A DNA stretch of 41,293 bases from Holophagales bacterium. Lineage in GTDB: Bacteria > Acidobacteriota > Thermoanaerobaculia > Multivoradales > Multivoraceae. Below, piece after piece: positions 36,320-41,293 of the stretch (position 1 is its first letter; every line of letters starts with the position of its first letter). The position numbers and the translations under genes are program-made. The DNA is taken from NCBI GenBank assembly GCA_009837085.1, contig VXUF01000077.1, positions 16,186 through 57,478 of the forward strand, given 5' to 3'. The notes below the pieces were generated by a model. The model worked only from the letters and a program-made list of their open reading frames with translations. It made no database searches and was not told the origin of the DNA.

Positions 36320-37717
36320 ATGGCCTCCCAGAATGTGCCGGCTGCTCAGCAGTCGGAGCTCGTGATCGTCGCCAACACCCTGCCCGTGCGCCGCGAGGAG
36401 GTGGATGGGGAACTGGGCTGGGCGCAAAGCCCCGGCGGCCTCGTCAGCGCCCTGTCGCCGATCGTCCGGGAGGCGGGCGGGTGCTGGGTCGGCTGGACCG
36501 GCGGCGCCGACGACGCGCCCGAGCCGTTCCGCCACGAGGACATCCTGAACGTGGCGGTGCCGGTGTCGGAGGCCGAAGTCGCCGGTTCGTACCAGGGGAT
36601 GTGCAACTCGACCCTTTGGCCGCTCTACCACGACGCGGTGCGGCCGCCCGAGTACCACCGCCACTGGTGGAACCCCTACGTCGCGGTCAACCGGCGCTTC
36701 GCCGAGGAGGCGGCGCGCCGGACGGCGCCCGGGGGCCGCGTGTGGATCCAGGACTACCACCTGCAGCTCGTGCCGCGCATGCTGCGTGAGCTGCGGCCGG
36801 ATGTCAGCTCCGGCTTCTTCCTCCACATTCCGTTCCCGCCGATCGAGCTGTTCCTGCGCCTGCCCTGGCGGCGGGCGGTGCTGGAGGGCCTGCTAGGCGC
36901 CGACGTGATCGGCTTCCAGACCCCTGCCGGCGCCTACAACTTCACGCGGCTCGCCGACCGGCTGATCGAGGCCGAGCCTCAGGGCGAGACGATTCGCTAC
37001 CAGGGGCGTGACATCCGGGTCGGCGCCTTCCCGATCTCCATCGACACGGACCGCTACGCGAACGCGGCGCTGTCGCCCGAGATCCGGGAGCGGGCCGAGC
37101 AGCTTCAGCAGCTTCGCCGCGGCCGCAAGATCATCCTCTCGGTCGACCGCCTCGACTACACGAAGGGCATCGACCTGCGGCTCAAGGCGTTCCTCGAGTG
37201 GTTGGGCCGCGAGGACCGGTCGATCCGCGACGCGGTCATGGTCCAGGTCGCCGTGCCGAGCCGAGAGCGCATCTCGGAGTACCAGATCCTGCGCCGCGAC
37301 GTTGAGGAACTCGTCGGCCAGATCAACGGGGAGTACGGCGAACTGGGCGTGGTGCCGGTGCAGTACTTCCGGCGCAACCTGCCGTTCGAGGAGCTGATCG
37401 CCTTCTACCTCGTCGCCGACGTCATGCTCGTGACGCCGCTCTGCGACGGCATGAACCTGGTGGCCAAGGAGTACGTCGCCACCCGGCTGGAGGACGACGG
37501 CGTCCTGGTGCTGAGCGAGTTCGCGGGCGCGGCCGCCGAGCTGCCGGACGCCCTGCTCGTGAACCCGCACGACGTGAACGCGATGGCCGCGACGATCGAG
37601 CAGGCGGTCACCCTCGACCCGGAGGACGGGTCGCGACGGATGAAGGCGATGCGCGAGGTCGTGCGCCGGCACTCCGTGCACGAGTGGGCGGCGCAGTTCA
37701 TCGAGGCCCTGGTCTGA
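36320..37717 (+). CDS. otsA: Trehalose-6-phosphate synthase
   Basis: PGGLVSAL, LWPLYH, WIQDYHL, FFLHIPFP, VDRLDYTKG, DGMNLVAKEY and LSEFAGAA motifs. Confidence 0.97.
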   Translation: MASQNVPAAQQSELVIVANTLPVRREEVDGELGWAQSPGGLVSALSPIVREAGGCWVGWTGGADDAPEPFRHEDILNVAVPVSEAEVAGSYQGMCNSTLWPLYHDAVRPPEYHRHWWNPYVAVNRRFAEEAARRTAPGGRVWIQDYHLQLVPRMLRELRPDVSSGFFLHIPFPPIELFLRLPWRRAVLEGLLGADVIGFQTPAGAYNFTRLADRLIEAEPQGETIRYQGRDIRVGAFPISIDTDRYANAALSPEIRERAEQLQQLRRGRKIILSVDRLDYTKGIDLRLKAFLEWLGREDRSIRDAVMVQVAVPSRERISEYQILRRDVEELVGQINGEYGELGVVPVQYFRRNLPFEELIAFYLVADVMLVTPLCDGMNLVAKEYVATRLEDDGVLVLSEFAGAAAELPDALLVNPHDVNAMAATIEQAVTLDPEDGSRRMKAMREVVRRHSVHEWAAQFIEALV

Positions 37718-37722
37718 CGCCC

Positions 37723-38907
37723 ATGGAACGCCCCGTCAGCGACGCGGAAGCGGGGTTCGAGGTAGGCGCGGGTTTCGAACGCTTCTCGCAGAAGGACGAC
37801 GTCTTCTGCCGCTCGTTCTGGGACCCCGAGGTGAGGACCTCCCGCTCGGACATGTTCTACGAGACGTACCGTACGCCGGAGCTGCGCTGGCGCCCGGTCG
37901 AAGGGTTCACGCGGCGCGACTACGCGCTTCGCAACGCTTCCTGGCACGTAACCGATCTGTTCGCGGAGTTCAGGGAAGGCGCCGACCGTCGCGAGGGGTT
38001 CCTCGACCCCTACACGGTGCTCCGGGACGGTCCGGGTCCGCCAGACGAGAGCGACGAGCCGGAAGAGGTCCTCGCCGCCCGGCTTGCCGTCGATCTCAAG
38101 ACCGCCGCCCGCGCGCTGGGCGCCGACCTGGTCGGGATCACCGGACATGACGAGCGCTGGGTGTACACGCACGCGTACTCGAGGGAAACCGAGACGGAGA
38201 AGCCCCAGGAGCTTTCGGGCGAACTCGGGAACGTCGTCGTCATCGCGCAGGCGATGGACCGGAAGCTGGTGCAGACCGTGCCGTCGGCCCTGAGCGGGAC
38301 GGCGACGGGCGTCGGCTACAGCAGCGACACGGTCGTGCTGCTCGCGATCGCCCAGTACATCCTGAACATGGGCTACGCCGCGGTGCCAACGATGAACGAC
38401 ACGGCTCTGGCGATTCCGCTGGCGATCAAGGCGGGGCTGGGCGAGTACGGCCGTCACGGTCTGCTGATCACCAGGGAGTTCGGCCCCAGGGTGCGGCTCG
38501 GGAAGATCTTCACGGACATGCCTCTGGCGCACGACCGTCCACGGCGCTTCGGCGTGCGCGAGACCTGCGAAGTGTGCCGCGCATGCTCGGATGCGTGCCC
38601 ACCGAAGGCCATCGCGATGGACGCGCCGTCGGACCGCGTCTACAACATCTCCAACATCCGCGGCGTCAGGAAGTGGACGACGGACGCCGAGAAGTGCTTC
38701 CGGTTCTGGTCGAACCAGAACACCGACTGCTCGATCTGCGTCCGGGTCTGCCCCTACAACCGGGACTACTCGAAACGTCTCAGCCGGCTCTGGCGGTGGA
38801 TGGCGGGGACCGGCCTGCGCCGGCTCGCCCTCTGGCTCGATCGCCTCAGCGGGCGTGGGCGGAGGGTTGCTCCGGACACGTGGTGGGGCGGCGGGGATTA
38901 TAACTAA
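37723..38907 (+). CDS. Reductive dehalogenase-like cobalamin / 2x[4Fe-4S] protein without a TAT signal
   Basis: LGADLVGI..DERWVY, AIPLAIKAGLGEYGRHGLLITREFGPRVRLGKIFTD, CEVCRACSDACP and KC..FW...DCSICVRVCP. Confidence 0.85.
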   Translation: MERPVSDAEAGFEVGAGFERFSQKDDVFCRSFWDPEVRTSRSDMFYETYRTPELRWRPVEGFTRRDYALRNASWHVTDLFAEFREGADRREGFLDPYTVLRDGPGPPDESDEPEEVLAARLAVDLKTAARALGADLVGITGHDERWVYTHAYSRETETEKPQELSGELGNVVVIAQAMDRKLVQTVPSALSGTATGVGYSSDTVVLLAIAQYILNMGYAAVPTMNDTALAIPLAIKAGLGEYGRHGLLITREFGPRVRLGKIFTDMPLAHDRPRRFGVRETCEVCRACSDACPPKAIAMDAPSDRVYNISNIRGVRKWTTDAEKCFRFWSNQNTDCSICVRVCPYNRDYSKRLSRLWRWMAGTGLRRLALWLDRLSGRGRRVAPDTWWGGGDYN

Positions 38908-38910
38908 ACG

Positions 38911-38939
38911 TTGACAAACAGCGGGATTCTCGGTAGGGT
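38911..38939 (+). promoter_or_regulatory. Sigma70 promoter of the transposase, TTGACA-N17-TAGGGT
   Basis: Perfect -35 box and 17-nt spacer. GGAGG RBS before the ATG at 38970. Confidence 0.7.
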
Positions 38940-38969: not shown

Positions 38970-39941
38970 ATGACCGAGATCACCCAGAAAGCTCCCGGCA
39001 AGCACTACCGCGAGGGCATCTCACTGTTCAAGCTGCATCGGCTGTTTCCCAACGAAGAAGCGGCCCGGAAGTGGTTCGAGTCGGCCCTCTGGGGTAACGA
39101 GCGCCACTGCCCGCGCTGCGGCGGCAATCGGACGCGGGAAGCCTCGCATCGCTTCATGCCGTACTGGTGCACGGACTGCCGGAAGTACTTCAGCGTCAAG
39201 GTCGGCACCGTCATGGAGGCGTCCAAGCTTCCGCTGTTGACCTGGCTGTATGCGATCTACCTCGAAGCGGCGAACCTCAAGGGAGTCTCCAGCATGGAGC
39301 TTCACCGCGCCCTCGACATTTCGCAGAAGTCCGCATGGTTCGTTCTCCACCGCATCCGGGCGGCGTTCAAGGACGGTTCGTTCTCAAAGCTCGAAGGCAT
39401 CGTTGAGGTGGACGAGATGTTCGTAGGCGGCAAGCAGAAGAATCGACACAAGAAGGACCGCGACCGCTTCCGGGACGGAGACGGCGGCGGCTCGTCGTCG
39501 TTCTTCGGCAAGAAGCCCGTCATCGGGGCGATCTCGCGCGACGGCAAAGCGGTTGCAGCTCCGATCGACTCCACGGACGGCAAGACCCTGACCCGGTTCG
39601 TCGAGGCCAGCGTGAAGCACGGCAGCCGCGTCTACACCGACGATCACGGCGGCTACGGCGACCTCATGGAGACGTACATGCACCGTACCGTCCGGCACTC
39701 CCTCGGCGAGTACGTCCGCTCCGTGGACGTGCACACGAACACGATCGAGTCCCTGTGGTCCATGTTCAAGCGCGGGTTCGTCGGGAAGTACCACCGGATG
39801 AGCTTCAAGCACCTGCACCGCTACGTCGATGAGTTCGTCTGGCGGCGCAACGTCCGCGACCTCGACACGATGGAGCAGATGGTCGAGATGGTGCGGGGCA
39901 TGGCGAACCGGAGACTCCGCTACGCCGATCTGGTCGCCTAG
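38970..39941 (+). CDS. IS1595-family transposase
   Basis: Zn ribbon CPRC...CTDCRKYFSV, HTH GVSSMELHRALDISQKSAW and catalytic VEVDE, VYTDD, HTNTIESLWS, Y.DEF.WR.N. Confidence 0.95.
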   Translation: MTEITQKAPGKHYREGISLFKLHRLFPNEEAARKWFESALWGNERHCPRCGGNRTREASHRFMPYWCTDCRKYFSVKVGTVMEASKLPLLTWLYAIYLEAANLKGVSSMELHRALDISQKSAWFVLHRIRAAFKDGSFSKLEGIVEVDEMFVGGKQKNRHKKDRDRFRDGDGGGSSSFFGKKPVIGAISRDGKAVAAPIDSTDGKTLTRFVEASVKHGSRVYTDDHGGYGDLMETYMHRTVRHSLGEYVRSVDVHTNTIESLWSMFKRGFVGKYHRMSFKHLHRYVDEFVWRRNVRDLDTMEQMVEMVRGMANRRLRYADLVA

Positions 39942-41293
39942 CCGGCCGCCATGTAGCCGCGCTTCTGATTCTCGCGGCGCAGCCCCGATAGCGTGTAGGT
40001 GTTGCTCTTCAGCCGGTTGCACGGCCCGCAAAGCAGGATGCGGTTCGAGACGTGGTTGATCCCGCCGTCCGAGCGCGGCGTGTTGTGGTCCAGTTCCAGG
40101 TAGCGGGGATCGTCGAACGCCCGGTCGCAACCCTGGCAGCGTGGGCCGTGCTGTTCGAGCAGGTATTCGTACATCTCCGCTCGCGTCCATCGTGGTCCGT
40201 CCGGTTCCTTCACCCGTACCTTGACTCGGAGGAACGGGGCGGAGGTTTCACCGTCGTCCGTCCGTTCCGGCGGGTCTGCTATGAGCGGAATATCGCCCAG
40301 CTTGAAGTCACCGAGCAGTGCGTCTTTCTCAAGTCGGTCGATAACGGTCTGGTGAGCATCATTCCAGATGTCGATTCCTACCCACTGACGGCCGAGCCGT
40401 TCGGCCGCTACCAGCGTGGTGGCACAGCCCGCAAAGGGGTCAAGCACCACGTCACCTTCATTGCTAGAAGCCTTGATGATCCGTTCGTAAAGCTCTAGTG
40501 ACTTCTGCGTCGGCCAGCCCGTTTTCTCCGGGTCGGTCGGACTGGCTATTCGCTTCACATCGGGCCACCAGTCGTTTACCGGAGTTCCCTTCGGATTCAA
40601 CCCTTGCTCGAAGTACTTGCCCTTGACGGCGGTTCTCCCGCGCTGTTGAGTGCCAGCCGAATAGGGTCGATAGACCGGGCTGTAGTGATAATCGGCGGTC
40701 TTGGTGTAGCGCAAGATGTAGTCATGCTTGCGAGGAAAGTCGCGTTTTGGGATGCCTCCACCCGCATAGCACCAGACAAGCTCGTTACGGAAGTTCCGCC
40801 ATCCGAAGATGGCGTCCATGACGGCCTTCAGGTAGTGACTGGCGGTGGGGTCGCAGTGCAGATAGATCGTGCCTGTTGGTTTGAGCACGCGACGCATGGC
40901 GAGTAGGCGTACAGCCATGAAGCAGAGGTATGCCGCCATGCCGTCTGAGTGCGTGTCCCGTGCCCCGTTGATTGCTCGCATCAAACCGGGATGGTCGTCC
41001 GTGATCTCGTCTACCCACTCCTCGTGGACATCCCGCTCCCAGGTCCATCGATCCTGGAACTTCGCCCCGGCCGCGAGGCTGCTCGGCGTCGCGTGGAAGT
41101 CCCGCCCCTTGTTGAACGGCGGATCGGTGGCAATGAGGTCCACGGACTCAGAGTTCATCGCTCGCAGGAAGGTGAGGTTGTCGCCGTGGAACAGCGTCCG
41201 ATTCTTCCAGTTCGGTTCGGCGGGTAGAATTCCGGCGCGTCCCGCGTCCCGCGTCCCGCGTCCCGCGTCCCGCGTCCCGCGTCCCGCGTCCCG
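39938..41293 (-). CDS. Beta-class amino-DNA methyltransferase fused to a C-terminal HNH endonuclease; 5' end beyond the window
   Basis: PNWKNRTLFHGDNL lies upstream of the annotated ATG (41158), followed by TDPPFN, WPTQK, DPFAGCATT, then CQGC..ELDHNTPRSDGG..N..LLCGPCNRLK. The frame is stop-free to the window end. Confidence 0.9.
   Translation of the reverse strand, partial: RDAGRGTRDAGRGTRDAGRAGILPAEPNWKNRTLFHGDNLTFLRAMNSESVDLIATDPPFNKGRDFHATPSSLAAGAKFQDRWTWERDVHEEWVDEITDDHPGLMRAINGARDTHSDGMAAYLCFMAVRLLAMRRVLKPTGTIYLHCDPTASHYLKAVMDAIFGWRNFRNELVWCYAGGGIPKRDFPRKHDYILRYTKTADYHYSPVYRPYSAGTQQRGRTAVKGKYFEQGLNPKGTPVNDWWPDVKRIASPTDPEKTGWPTQKSLELYERIIKASSNEGDVVLDPFAGCATTLVAAERLGRQWVGIDIWNDAHQTVIDRLEKDALLGDFKLGDIPLIADPPERTDDGETSAPFLRVKVRVKEPDGPRWTRAEMYEYLLEQHGPRCQGCDRAFDDPRYLELDHNTPRSDGGINHVSNRILLCGPCNRLKSNTYTLSGLRRENQKRGYMAAG
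41237..41293 (-). repeat. Heptanucleotide simple sequence repeat, (GCGTCCC) x8 or more; (GGGACGC)n on the coding strand
   Basis: Eight perfect units at 41237-41292 plus 1 nt, running off the window edge. Confidence 0.95.

Follow-up and report, generated by a model that had tools for sequence, protein, structure and literature searches.

Organization of the locus

The window, a stretch of 41,293 nucleotides of DNA from the Holophagales bacterium assembly GCA_009837085.1 (contig VXUF01000077.1, positions 16,186 to 57,478 of the forward strand), ends within a convergent pair of genes that together form a transposon of 2.5 kb. One of these genes encodes a transposase of the IS1595 family and the other a predicted DNA methyltransferase (MTase) fused to a C-terminal HNH nuclease domain, the latter being preceded, at its 5' end, by a tract of perfect 7-nt repeats. 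The features of the locus, in the coordinates of the window, are as follows:

38885-38892 (no strand): 8-bp target-site duplication GGGGCGGC; the second copy lies directly after the right inverted repeat, outside the window
38893-38917 (+): left terminal inverted repeat (GGGGATTATAAC...TTGACA); its partner lies beyond the window (positions 2972-2996 of L001, our label for the locus), 31 nt upstream of the MTase ATG
38970-39941 (+): IS1595-family transposase gene, convergent with the MTase-HNH gene; the 3' ends, including the stop codons, overlap by 4 nt
39938-41235 (-): MTase-HNH coding region downstream of the tract (432 codons including the stop)
40001-40138 (-): C-terminal HNH nuclease domain (CxxC ... 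DHN ... NH..N ... CxxCN)
40349-41143 (-): beta-class N6/N4 DNA methyltransferase domain, with DPPF near the N-terminus and PFAGCATT later
41148-41157 (-): stop codons of the two out-of-frame readings of the tract (5'-open reading frames 41148-41291 and 41155-41292)
41212-41235 (-): junction GCC GGA ATT CTA CCC GCC GAA CCG (AGILPAEP) between the tract and the NWKNRTLFHGDNL motif, containing an in-frame ATT
41236-41293 (-): heptamer tract (GGGACGC)n, the part inside the window; it continues across a 10-N scaffold gap for at least 8 more units (57489-57549 of the scaffold, C141)

The open frame 39938-41293 on the minus strand runs from the tract through AGILPAEPNWKNRTLFHGDNL into the methyltransferase. 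Profile searches against Pfam assigned the domains N6_N4_Mtase (PF01555; 1.9e-43, 149.4 bits against a cut-off of 26.7) and HNH (PF01844; 8.7e-9, 35.8 bits against a cut-off of 21.4), the latter at residues 386-431 of the 451-aa open frame, and hence the nuclease domain resides in the same chain as the MTase. A search for relatives returned 8000 homologues, of which the top 120 are 61-85% identical and all carry both PF01555 and PF01844. Within an alignment of 37 sequences, the Cys, His and Asn positions of the HNH domain, representing its metal- and zinc-binding positions, are invariant. The order of DPPF before the FxGxG motif is that of the beta class, and matches were found to the solved structures of the N6-adenine MTases M.BceJIV, M.RsrI, CcrM and M.MboIIA by sequence (E-values of 1e-21 to 4.5e-13) and by fold (5e-17 to 2e-15 over about 300 columns). 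Identity to these enzymes is only 21-25%, however, and none of them has a C-terminal HNH domain or a 5' repeat, and modification of N6-adenine is a prediction. An AlphaFold model (pLDDT of 74.7) used in a Foldseek search, in which the HNH part was not queried separately, recovered only the MTase fold, and PADLOC matched only its generic MTase_II and MTase_III models.

The heptamer tract

Tandem Repeats Finder reported positions 41236-41293 as a repeat of period 7 with 8.3 copies and 100% matches. The window ends here because the scaffold has a 10-N gap inside the tract (C141 57479-57488), and beyond this gap were found 8 more full units followed by ATGACTGAGGCAAAGAC, an ATG located 17 nt before the first unit. 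With this start, the gene is in frame only when the number of units, n, equals 1 mod 3 (17+7n = 0 mod 3); the gap conceals n itself. The tract is more than a chance occurrence: it is the top-scoring tandem repeat in the 4.32-Mb genome and, apart from homopolymer runs (two of them beside or near scaffold gaps), the only perfect repeat of at least 4 copies whose unit is not a multiple of 3; it is also the only (GGGACGC)≥3 locus of the genome.

No in-frame ATG, GTG or TTG lies between the tract and the N-terminal motif, where only ATT (6 nt after the tract) and CTG occur. In 113 of the 120 closest homologues the protein starts upstream of this motif, in most of them 2-5 residues before it, and a gene call from the ATG at 41158 is therefore truncated. 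A consensus promoter and terminator scan upstream of the ATG found no site; the -10 candidate TACGGT matches only 3 of 6 positions.

An earlier sequence-only reading had described the heptamer tract within the 5' coding region and predicted a start codon upstream of it; this observation is confirmed. Its interpretation, that a GC-rich heptamer switch toggles both the methylation and nuclease activities of a one-polypeptide restriction-modification (R-M) gene riding a transposon, is supported only in part: the upstream start codon, the MTase-HNH fusion and the transposon were each found, whereas length heterogeneity and ON/OFF switching at this locus, restriction by the HNH domain and toggling of methylation rest on inference. 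It had further suggested that length heterogeneity broke the assembly within the tract, but the gap fits a repeat longer than the assembler could bridge just as well.

An IS1595-family transposon

The transposase was recognized by its DDE_Tnp_IS1595 domain (PF12762; 1.8e-37), its N-terminal zinc ribbon, Zn_ribbon_IS1595 (PF12760; 1.4e-7), and the NCBIfam model NF033547 (184.9 bits against a cut-off of 75). The two terminal inverted repeats are 25 nt in length and 88% complementary, and the motif occurs only at these two places in the genome. An 8-bp target-site duplication was found in 11 of 12 elements, and in at least 9 relatives the two flanks of the present element abut and share one 8-nt copy, thus representing empty sites. 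None of 2489 matching records in a plasmid collection covers 80% or more of the protein.

Tracts in related elements

A comparison of homologous genes for tracts at the same position, which had been set beforehand as a test, was made within the genus (42 genomes, here denoted by G numbers, with 54 N-terminal matches). Of the 28 genes in the PNW.NRTL class, 15 carry perfect 7- or 8-nt tracts of 4 to 20.4 units, fourteen of which sit at the same 5' position while one is intergenic; equivalent tracts occur in 7 other genomes. The units differ, being GACGCGG (the same as here, in G010), GCGACCG, GACCGGC, CGGGGGC, GCCAGCGC and CGACCGGG, but no unit length is a multiple of 3. None of the 26 other MTase matches has a tract. 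In G010, the same junction follows the same unit, with 4 synonymous and 0 non-synonymous differences over ILPAEPNW, and a GGAATT(G/C)T junction follows the tracts of the relatives.

Outside the genus, 1 of 80 loci from a cross-phylum scan has a tract, and this one carries the same tract as G003 of the genus; none was found at the other 79, nor at 14 loci from the same class (a survey leaving out the locus of the unpublished genome G061). A metagenome scan gave 18 loci, the best of them 62% identical over its full length, which included no alleles of this element, and none of the 13 loci whose N-terminus could be examined had a tract. Of 11 sequencing runs listed as sharing sampled words with the locus, and kept as contigs only, three hold at least 0.67 of these words, all from one study labelled sponge metagenome, and one may be the source; rows with small shares were not used.

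Paralogous copies of the related elements were found to differ only, or almost only, in the tract. In G020, the copies L005 and L019 have 0 mismatches in 2651 bp and carry 12 and 11 units, respectively; in G046, L026 and L045 have 0 mismatches and carry 2 and 8 units, with one additional 1-nt gap; and in G023, 150 nt on each side of the tract are identical between copies of 7 and 4 units (a third copy also has 7). All 34 hits of a 3-unit octamer pattern fall in the six known MTase 5' tracts of G020 and G023, with none in the three other genomes searched and 0 for the control. Values of dN/dS were 0.10-0.28 in 10 of 11 gene pairs, indicative of purifying selection, the 11th pair being saturated at synonymous sites; one pair comprises two tract-bearing genes, with dS of 0.70 and dN/dS of 0.10. 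In co-directional relatives, the start (A/G/T)TG overlaps the transposase TGA stop in every element where a transposase gene with a TGA stop lies directly upstream of the tract or its remnant.

By this coupled start, only 3 of about 12 independent relatives are in frame, namely G010 (n = 9), one G020 copy (n = 12) and G052, and of these the G020 gene also has a frameshift after DPPF and the G052 gene an internal TAG. The other independent elements, about 9, are out of frame, including copies with only 1-2 units that cannot easily switch back (G053, G047). The excess of out-of-frame states (2-3 in frame out of about 12-13) is not significant against an expectation of one third, by a binomial estimate of about 0.14 made by hand.

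A proposed phase-variable methylase-nuclease

Translation of the passenger gene most likely starts at the ATG 31 nt inside the right inverted repeat, reads five codons and must then cross a hypermutable tract that is open in all three frames. In this view, the enzyme, a beta-class (probably N6-adenine) MTase fused to an HNH nuclease, would be made only when n = 1 mod 3, while in the other two phases translation would end 27-29 codons after the tract. Slipped-strand mispairing would change n and so switch methylase and nuclease on and off together and, because both activities are predicted to sit in one polypeptide, switching off would not leave an unopposed nuclease. The anatomy of the locus, the mobility of the whole unit, the high mutability of equivalent tracts in relatives, where they are the most mutable site of the element, and the purifying selection on tract-bearing genes were each shown; the start codon and promoter, variation of tract length at this particular locus, control of expression by frame, and the activities of the enzyme are inferred. 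Phase variation is thus well supported comparatively, and we assign this explanation a probability of about 0.6.

Alternative explanations are considered less likely. The tract may be a hypermutable hot spot without an adaptive switch that mostly knocks out a costly selfish passenger gene in one direction, the many out-of-frame and collapsed copies being silenced genes on their way to decay. Collapsed tracts of 1-2 units do occur in G053, G047, G052 and one G046 copy, and the lesions in G020 (C4) and G052 are consistent with this notion. On the other hand, downstream reading frames stay open for 417-498 codons in 13 of 16 genes read (that of G013 ends after 157; L020 of G022, with 404, is not of the IS1595 passenger kind; and the broken G052 and G020:C4 copies were not among the 16), the low dN/dS extends to two tract-bearing genes, and long perfect tracts are maintained with different units at the same site, which points to repeated gain rather than only loss. 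Slightly less likely still is that translation starts downstream of the tract, which would then lie in a leader or upstream short reading frame and at most modulate expression through translational coupling, without gating it. The conserved GGAATT(G/C)T places ATT (here and in G010, G046 and G003) or TTG (G023 and L052 of G047) in the MTase frame after tracts of unrelated units, even where a 1-nt indel changes how it is read, and close to where family members normally start. This atypical start, recognized by the sequence-only reading as a possible refutation, is not excluded, but ATT is a rare initiator, no Shine-Dalgarno-like sequence sits at the usual distance before it, unit lengths are never multiples of 3, and the (A/G/T)TG overlapping the transposase stop is kept in all co-directional elements although GCC would be the expected Ala codon in a 68% GC genome.

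It is very unlikely that the tract encodes a disordered N-terminal tail (GTRDAGR repeats) varied in steps of three units. All three frames are stop-free and give the same peptide repeat, and two of the three paralog differences (7 vs 4 and 8 vs 2 units) are multiples of three units and so do not change the frame; however, the copies differing by 3 or 6 units are all out of frame with the coupled start, a 1-unit difference occurs in G020, and units of 7 and 8 nt would be an awkward way to vary a peptide. An assembly or scaffolding artefact was rejected: despite the 10-N gap, of which the genome has many, the tract is present on both sides with unique flanks, the same unit lies at the same site in the one-contig relative G010, and equivalent tracts occur in 7 other genomes.

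Relationship to known systems

In the phase-variable Type III mod genes, or phasevarions, a simple sequence repeat with a unit that is not a multiple of 3 likewise sits inside a DNA methyltransferase gene, and expansion was found only for units that shift the frame (Atack et al., 2018, PMC5909438). The present enzyme, by contrast, is a Type II-like beta-class MTase fused to HNH rather than a Mod subunit with a separate Res, the units are GC-rich 7-8-mers placed 2-6 codons after the start, and the gene is a transposon passenger present in several copies per genome. The Type IIG enzyme Cj0031 of Campylobacter jejuni also combines modification and restriction in one polypeptide with expression switched by a repeat tract (Anjum et al., 2016, PMC4889913). 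The Cj0031 tract is a homopolymer and its nuclease is not known to be HNH, and that system is chromosomal in a host-adapted pathogen and not IS-borne. The present element shares with IS1595-family insertion sequences a DDE_Tnp_IS1595 transposase with a zinc ribbon, short terminal inverted repeats and an 8-bp target duplication, and R-M or solitary M genes associated with IS elements are on record (Furuta et al., 2010, PMC2853133, citing Siguier et al., 2009 on IS1595); no report of a repeat-gated passenger gene in an IS was found, in a search that did not extend to the passengers listed by Siguier et al. (2009).

A more far-reaching proposal, which we regard as tentative, is that of a transposable phase-variable switch, with IS1595 elements in one genus of sponge-associated Acidobacteriota (class Thermoanaerobaculia) spreading a self-contained, stochastically switching methylase-nuclease. 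In this view, the elements multiply within genomes, the family reaching 3 to 11 copies, with different recognition domains and a tract length particular to each copy, and a cell line could therefore sample combinatorial methylation and defense states; the repeat would have been renewed at the same site with at least six different units. In co-directional elements, the tract could act as a three-state switch: half of the independent elements place the transposase and enzyme frames in line, separated by a single stop (TGA in five, TAG in one; the TGA is followed by C), and stop-codon read-through could then give a transposase-methylase-nuclease fusion.

Implications

Repeat-driven switching of DNA methyltransferases has mostly been studied in small-genome, host-adapted pathogens, where the switches sit in fixed chromosomal genes. 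Here, the putative switch and the enzyme travel together inside an insertion sequence, in an uncultured animal symbiont with a genome of 4-5 Mb and 68% GC, and the same enzyme family occurs in symbiont genomes of many phyla. If the tract does gate expression, it would represent a mobile version of this switch, offering a route for a methylase-nuclease to enter a new genome silently and be turned on later, and it would also give a symbiont population a heritable, reversible source of epigenetic or defense diversity.

The Repeat Tract and Its Reading Frame

On the minus strand of window positions 39500-41293, (GGGACGC) units run to the last base of the window and are followed in frame by AGILPAEPNWKNRTLFHGDNLTFLRAM and the remainder of a 451-codon open frame. 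The features that define the locus are:

window 41236-41293, minus strand: the heptamer tract, identified by Tandem Repeats Finder with period 7, 8.3 copies and 100% matches
residues 51-315 of the open frame: Pfam N6_N4_Mtase domain (1.9e-43)
residues 386-431 of the open frame: Pfam HNH domain (8.7e-9)
C141 57479-57488 (C141 being the scaffold that carries the window): a 10-N gap inside the tract
C141 57489-57549, minus strand: the continuation of the tract beyond the gap
window 38970-39941, plus strand: an IS1595-family transposase gene
window 38893-38917 and positions 2972-2996 of L001 (the retrieved sequence that includes the right end of the element): a 25-nt inverted repeat pair

No ATG, GTG or TTG lies in frame between the tract and the motif; an ATT is found 6 nt after the tract and a CTG inside the motif. 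The description given by the sequence-only reading, of perfect heptamer units translated without stops into the methyltransferase and lacking an intervening canonical start, is correct.

The window corresponds to C141 16186-57478 of the source genome (G000) and is bounded on both sides by 10-N scaffold gaps, of which the assembly has many. On the far side of the gap inside the tract come a partial unit and eight more full units; the minus strand then reads TTGACA, 18 nt, TACGGT, 7 nt, and ATGACTGAGGCAAAGAC, followed by the first unit. An ATG therefore lies 17 nt before the tract, upstream of it as the sequence-only reading had expected, and the enzyme is in frame when 17+7n is a multiple of 3, that is, when n = 1 mod 3. 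The other two phases end at stops 27-29 codons after the tract (the 5'-open ORFs ending at 41148 and 41155). The assembly constrains n only to 17 or more if the two flanks do not overlap, and to at least 9 if they do. A consensus promoter scan found nothing upstream of the ATG; the -35 hexamer is perfect but the -10 candidate matches only 3 of 6 positions, and hence the promoter and a leaderless start are inferences.

Within the 4.32-Mb, 68% GC genome, this is the highest-scoring tandem repeat, and it is the only perfect repeat of at least four copies whose unit is not a multiple of 3, apart from homopolymer runs (two of them beside or near scaffold gaps). It is also the only place with three or more GGGACGC units. 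The repeats give runs of three G separated by four bases, which fits the usual G-quadruplex pattern on the coding strand and in the mRNA, judged from sequence alone; the units of some relatives (CGACCGGG, CGGGGGC) also fit this pattern whereas others (GCGACCG, GCCAGCGC) do not.

The Methyltransferase-HNH Family

The protein encoded after the tract has at least 8000 homologues, the best 120 of which are 61-85% identical, 404-494 aa long, and carry both Pfam domains. In 113 of these 120, the protein starts upstream of the NW.NRTL motif, in most of them 2-5 residues before it. The remaining seven, including the cluster identical to this gene, were called from MNSESVDLIATD, the same truncated call as the annotated ATG at 41158. 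The real start must therefore lie upstream of the motif, and here that means upstream of the tract or at a non-canonical codon. An alignment of 37 members showed the HNH cysteines, histidines and asparagines to be invariant, while sequence and fold searches placed the N-terminal two thirds with the beta-class N6-adenine methyltransferases M.BceJIV, RsrI, CcrM and MboIIA. PADLOC matched only generic Type II and Type III methyltransferase models, and no plasmid record was found to cover 80% of the fusion.

The Transposon

The neighboring transposase gene is convergent with the enzyme gene, and one member of the inverted repeat pair (88% complementary) lies just upstream of each of the two genes. 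The core motif of the repeat occurs nowhere else in the genome, and both ends are flanked by GGGGCGGC. Separate searches with the left and right flanks in the 42 genomes of the genus revealed that in at least nine relatives, including G018, G007, G042, G015, G009, G041, G002, G014 and G047 (G numbers denoting genomes of the genus unless stated otherwise), the two flanks abut and share a single 8-nt copy. The whole 2.5-kb unit, transposase plus repeat-bearing enzyme gene, has therefore inserted as one piece. The insertion lies between a gene with iron-sulfur cluster motifs (CxxCxxCxxxCP; window 37684-38907, plus strand) and a gene starting MWIKKYDP (C141 beyond 57700, plus strand) that appears to be MsrP-like.

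The ATG of the enzyme is 31 nt inside the right repeat, and the TTGACA of this repeat is the candidate -35. The element is single-copy in G000. A second IS1595-type transposase gene, 46% identical, is split into two frames on scaffold C54 (50614-51538), and a fragment lies on C12 (1236-1430); neither has the inverted-repeat motif of this element.

Related Elements in the Genus

A search of the 42 genomes with the N-terminal 212 residues found 54 matches in 24 genomes, and the 5' regions of all of them were examined. Of the 28 genes in the PNW.NRTL class, 15 (in eight genomes) have perfect tracts of 4 to 20.4 units with 7- or 8-nt units, eight more keep remnants of 1-2 units, and five have none. 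None of the 26 matches of other methyltransferase classes has a tract. Fourteen of the 15 tracts lie at the same place, between a start codon and a conserved junction beginning GGAATT(G/C)T. The exception, a (CTTCACGG)x9.8 tract in G005 (locus L033, on C6), lies about 67 nt upstream of the GTG start, in the intergenic leader and after a TTGACA, where it could affect transcription or the leader instead of the frame. G010 has the same unit as this locus (nine copies); its junction encodes GGILPAEPNW, and over ILPAEPNW it differs from that of G000 by four synonymous changes and no replacement.

In 23 of the 28 genes (all but those of G005, G013 and G018, L048 of G003, and the G000 gene itself), the enzyme gene follows an IS1595-type transposase gene on the same strand. 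In all but two of these (G016, whose ATG lies 1 nt after the TGA stop, and G020:C5, whose stop is TAG), its (A/G/T)TG start overlaps the transposase TGA stop. L048 (G003:C1, about 3686400), a tract-bearing gene with 5.4 units, is preceded by only a mid-fragment of the transposase, and looks like a degenerate, immobile element that keeps an intact enzyme ORF. Eleven of the 12 elements with both inverted repeats have perfect 8-bp duplications. All 14 IS1595-associated or close relatives read end in an HNH domain (a 15th, that of G013, breaks off after 157 codons), although their middle parts differ.

Other methyltransferase genes, of the YYGDCL class, in G023 (loci L055-L058 and L060-L063) and G022 (L053 and L054) are also flanked by GGGGATTATA-type inverted repeats with 8-bp duplications; they are present in four copies each in G023 and have no repeat tract. 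G023 carries at least 11 such methylase-bearing elements.

Instability of the Tracts and Selection on the Genes

Direct evidence for instability was obtained from paralogous copies. The two copies on G020:C4 have 0 mismatches over 2651 bp and differ only by one octamer (12 vs. 11 units). Two G046 copies likewise have 0 mismatches but differ by six octamers (8 vs. 2) plus a 1-nt gap, and a third copy is identical to the 8-unit one. With G023, two copies have identical sequence for 150 nt on each side of the tract and carry 7 and 4 units, a comparison that left out a third copy, also with 7. Every one of the 34 hits of a three-octamer pattern in five genomes falls inside the six known enzyme 5' tracts of G020 and G023, the other three genomes having none, and the control gave none. 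A second short-read assembly (G041) also breaks inside such a tract.

Pairwise dN/dS values, calculated by the NG86 method, were 0.10-0.28 in 10 of 11 pairs, the eleventh being saturated at synonymous sites. Two tract-bearing genes with different units (G046, 10 units; G003, 5.4 units) are 89% identical, with a dS of 0.70 and dN/dS of 0.10, which argues against simple decay.

Reading Frames That Complicate a Simple Switch

Other results cut the other way. Assuming that translation begins at the start coupled to the transposase stop, only G010 (n=9), one G020:C4 copy (n=12) and the two G052 copies are in frame, and of these the G020:C4 genes also have a frameshift just after DPPF while the G052 genes have an internal TAG. 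The remaining independent elements are out of frame. In six of them (L045/L050/L026 of G046; L030/L047 and L052, two kinds in G047; L024 of G003; L019, one G020:C4 copy; and L032 of G020:C5), all co-directional, the transposase frame runs straight into the enzyme frame across a single stop codon (TGA followed by C in five, TAG in one), such that a read-through transposase-enzyme fusion is conceivable. In three others (G023, a fourth G046 gene, and G053) neither frame fits. Copies with 1-2 units (G053, G047) could not easily switch back, and two of the three paralogue differences are multiples of three units. With about 12 independent elements, however, the shortage of in-frame states is not significant against an expectation of one third (estimated by hand at about 0.14). 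Furthermore, the conserved junction supplies ATT or TTG in the enzyme frame in every case, even where a 1-nt indel changes its reading, and initiation after the tract therefore cannot be dismissed.

Distribution

A scan of one genome per species found at least 598 relatives, the best 80 of which come from many phyla, with many record titles naming sponge-associated taxa. Only one of these 80 has a 5' tract; its record is titled Thermoanaerobaculia and it carries the 20.4-unit tract seen in G003. Related enzyme genes in a Paracoccaceae (L075), a Dehalococcoidia (L109), an Alphaproteobacteria (L129) and a Nitrospira (L136) genome are also bracketed by GGGGATTATA-like motifs in inverted orientation, and IS1595-type carriage of this enzyme thus seems to cross phyla. 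Among 301 genomes of the class, 15 outside the genus have distant matches, and of the 14 examined none has a tract or the inverted-repeat pair. A metagenome scan gave no close allele and no tract. Sequencing runs holding this stretch are labelled sponge metagenome. Within what was searched, the tract is an innovation of this genus laid on a widely transferred enzyme family.

Comparison with Known Systems and Proposed Mechanism

Repeat-bearing Type III mod genes are common, accounting for 17.4% of 3805, with units of 1-9 nt, and they include those of environmental species (PMC5909438). Type I systems (PMC7383803) and a Type IIG enzyme (PMC4889913) also switch. R-M and solitary M genes associated with insertion sequences and transposon-like units are on record (PMC2853133, which cites the 2009 paper on IS1595), and enrichment of R-M systems in sponge microbiomes is reported, without mention of repeats or IS1595 (PMC11410982). 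Within the literature searched, and leaving aside the supplementary tables of the surveys, which might list comparable genes, no paper was found to describe a repeat-gated passenger gene in an insertion sequence, or such switches in sponge symbionts. The locus is a transposon-borne, putatively repeat-gated methylase-nuclease.

The best-supported account is slipped-strand mispairing in a tract placed between the start codon and the catalytic domains, which would give stochastic ON/OFF expression of the fused enzyme. The anatomy of the locus, its mobility, the instability of the tracts in relatives and selection on the coding sequence are established by the analysis. By contrast, the start codon, variation in tract length at this locus, gating by frame, the modified base (N6-adenine is suggested by the DPPF motif and the structural relatives) and any restriction role for the HNH domain are inferred. 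The proposal of the sequence-only reading, that the heptamer tract toggles methylation and nuclease activity together in a single gene riding a transposon, is supported in part: the comparative evidence is strong, but switching at this locus itself rests on inference. It may also be inferred that a fused enzyme can be switched off without leaving a nuclease unopposed, and that a silent state would ease entry into an unmethylated genome.
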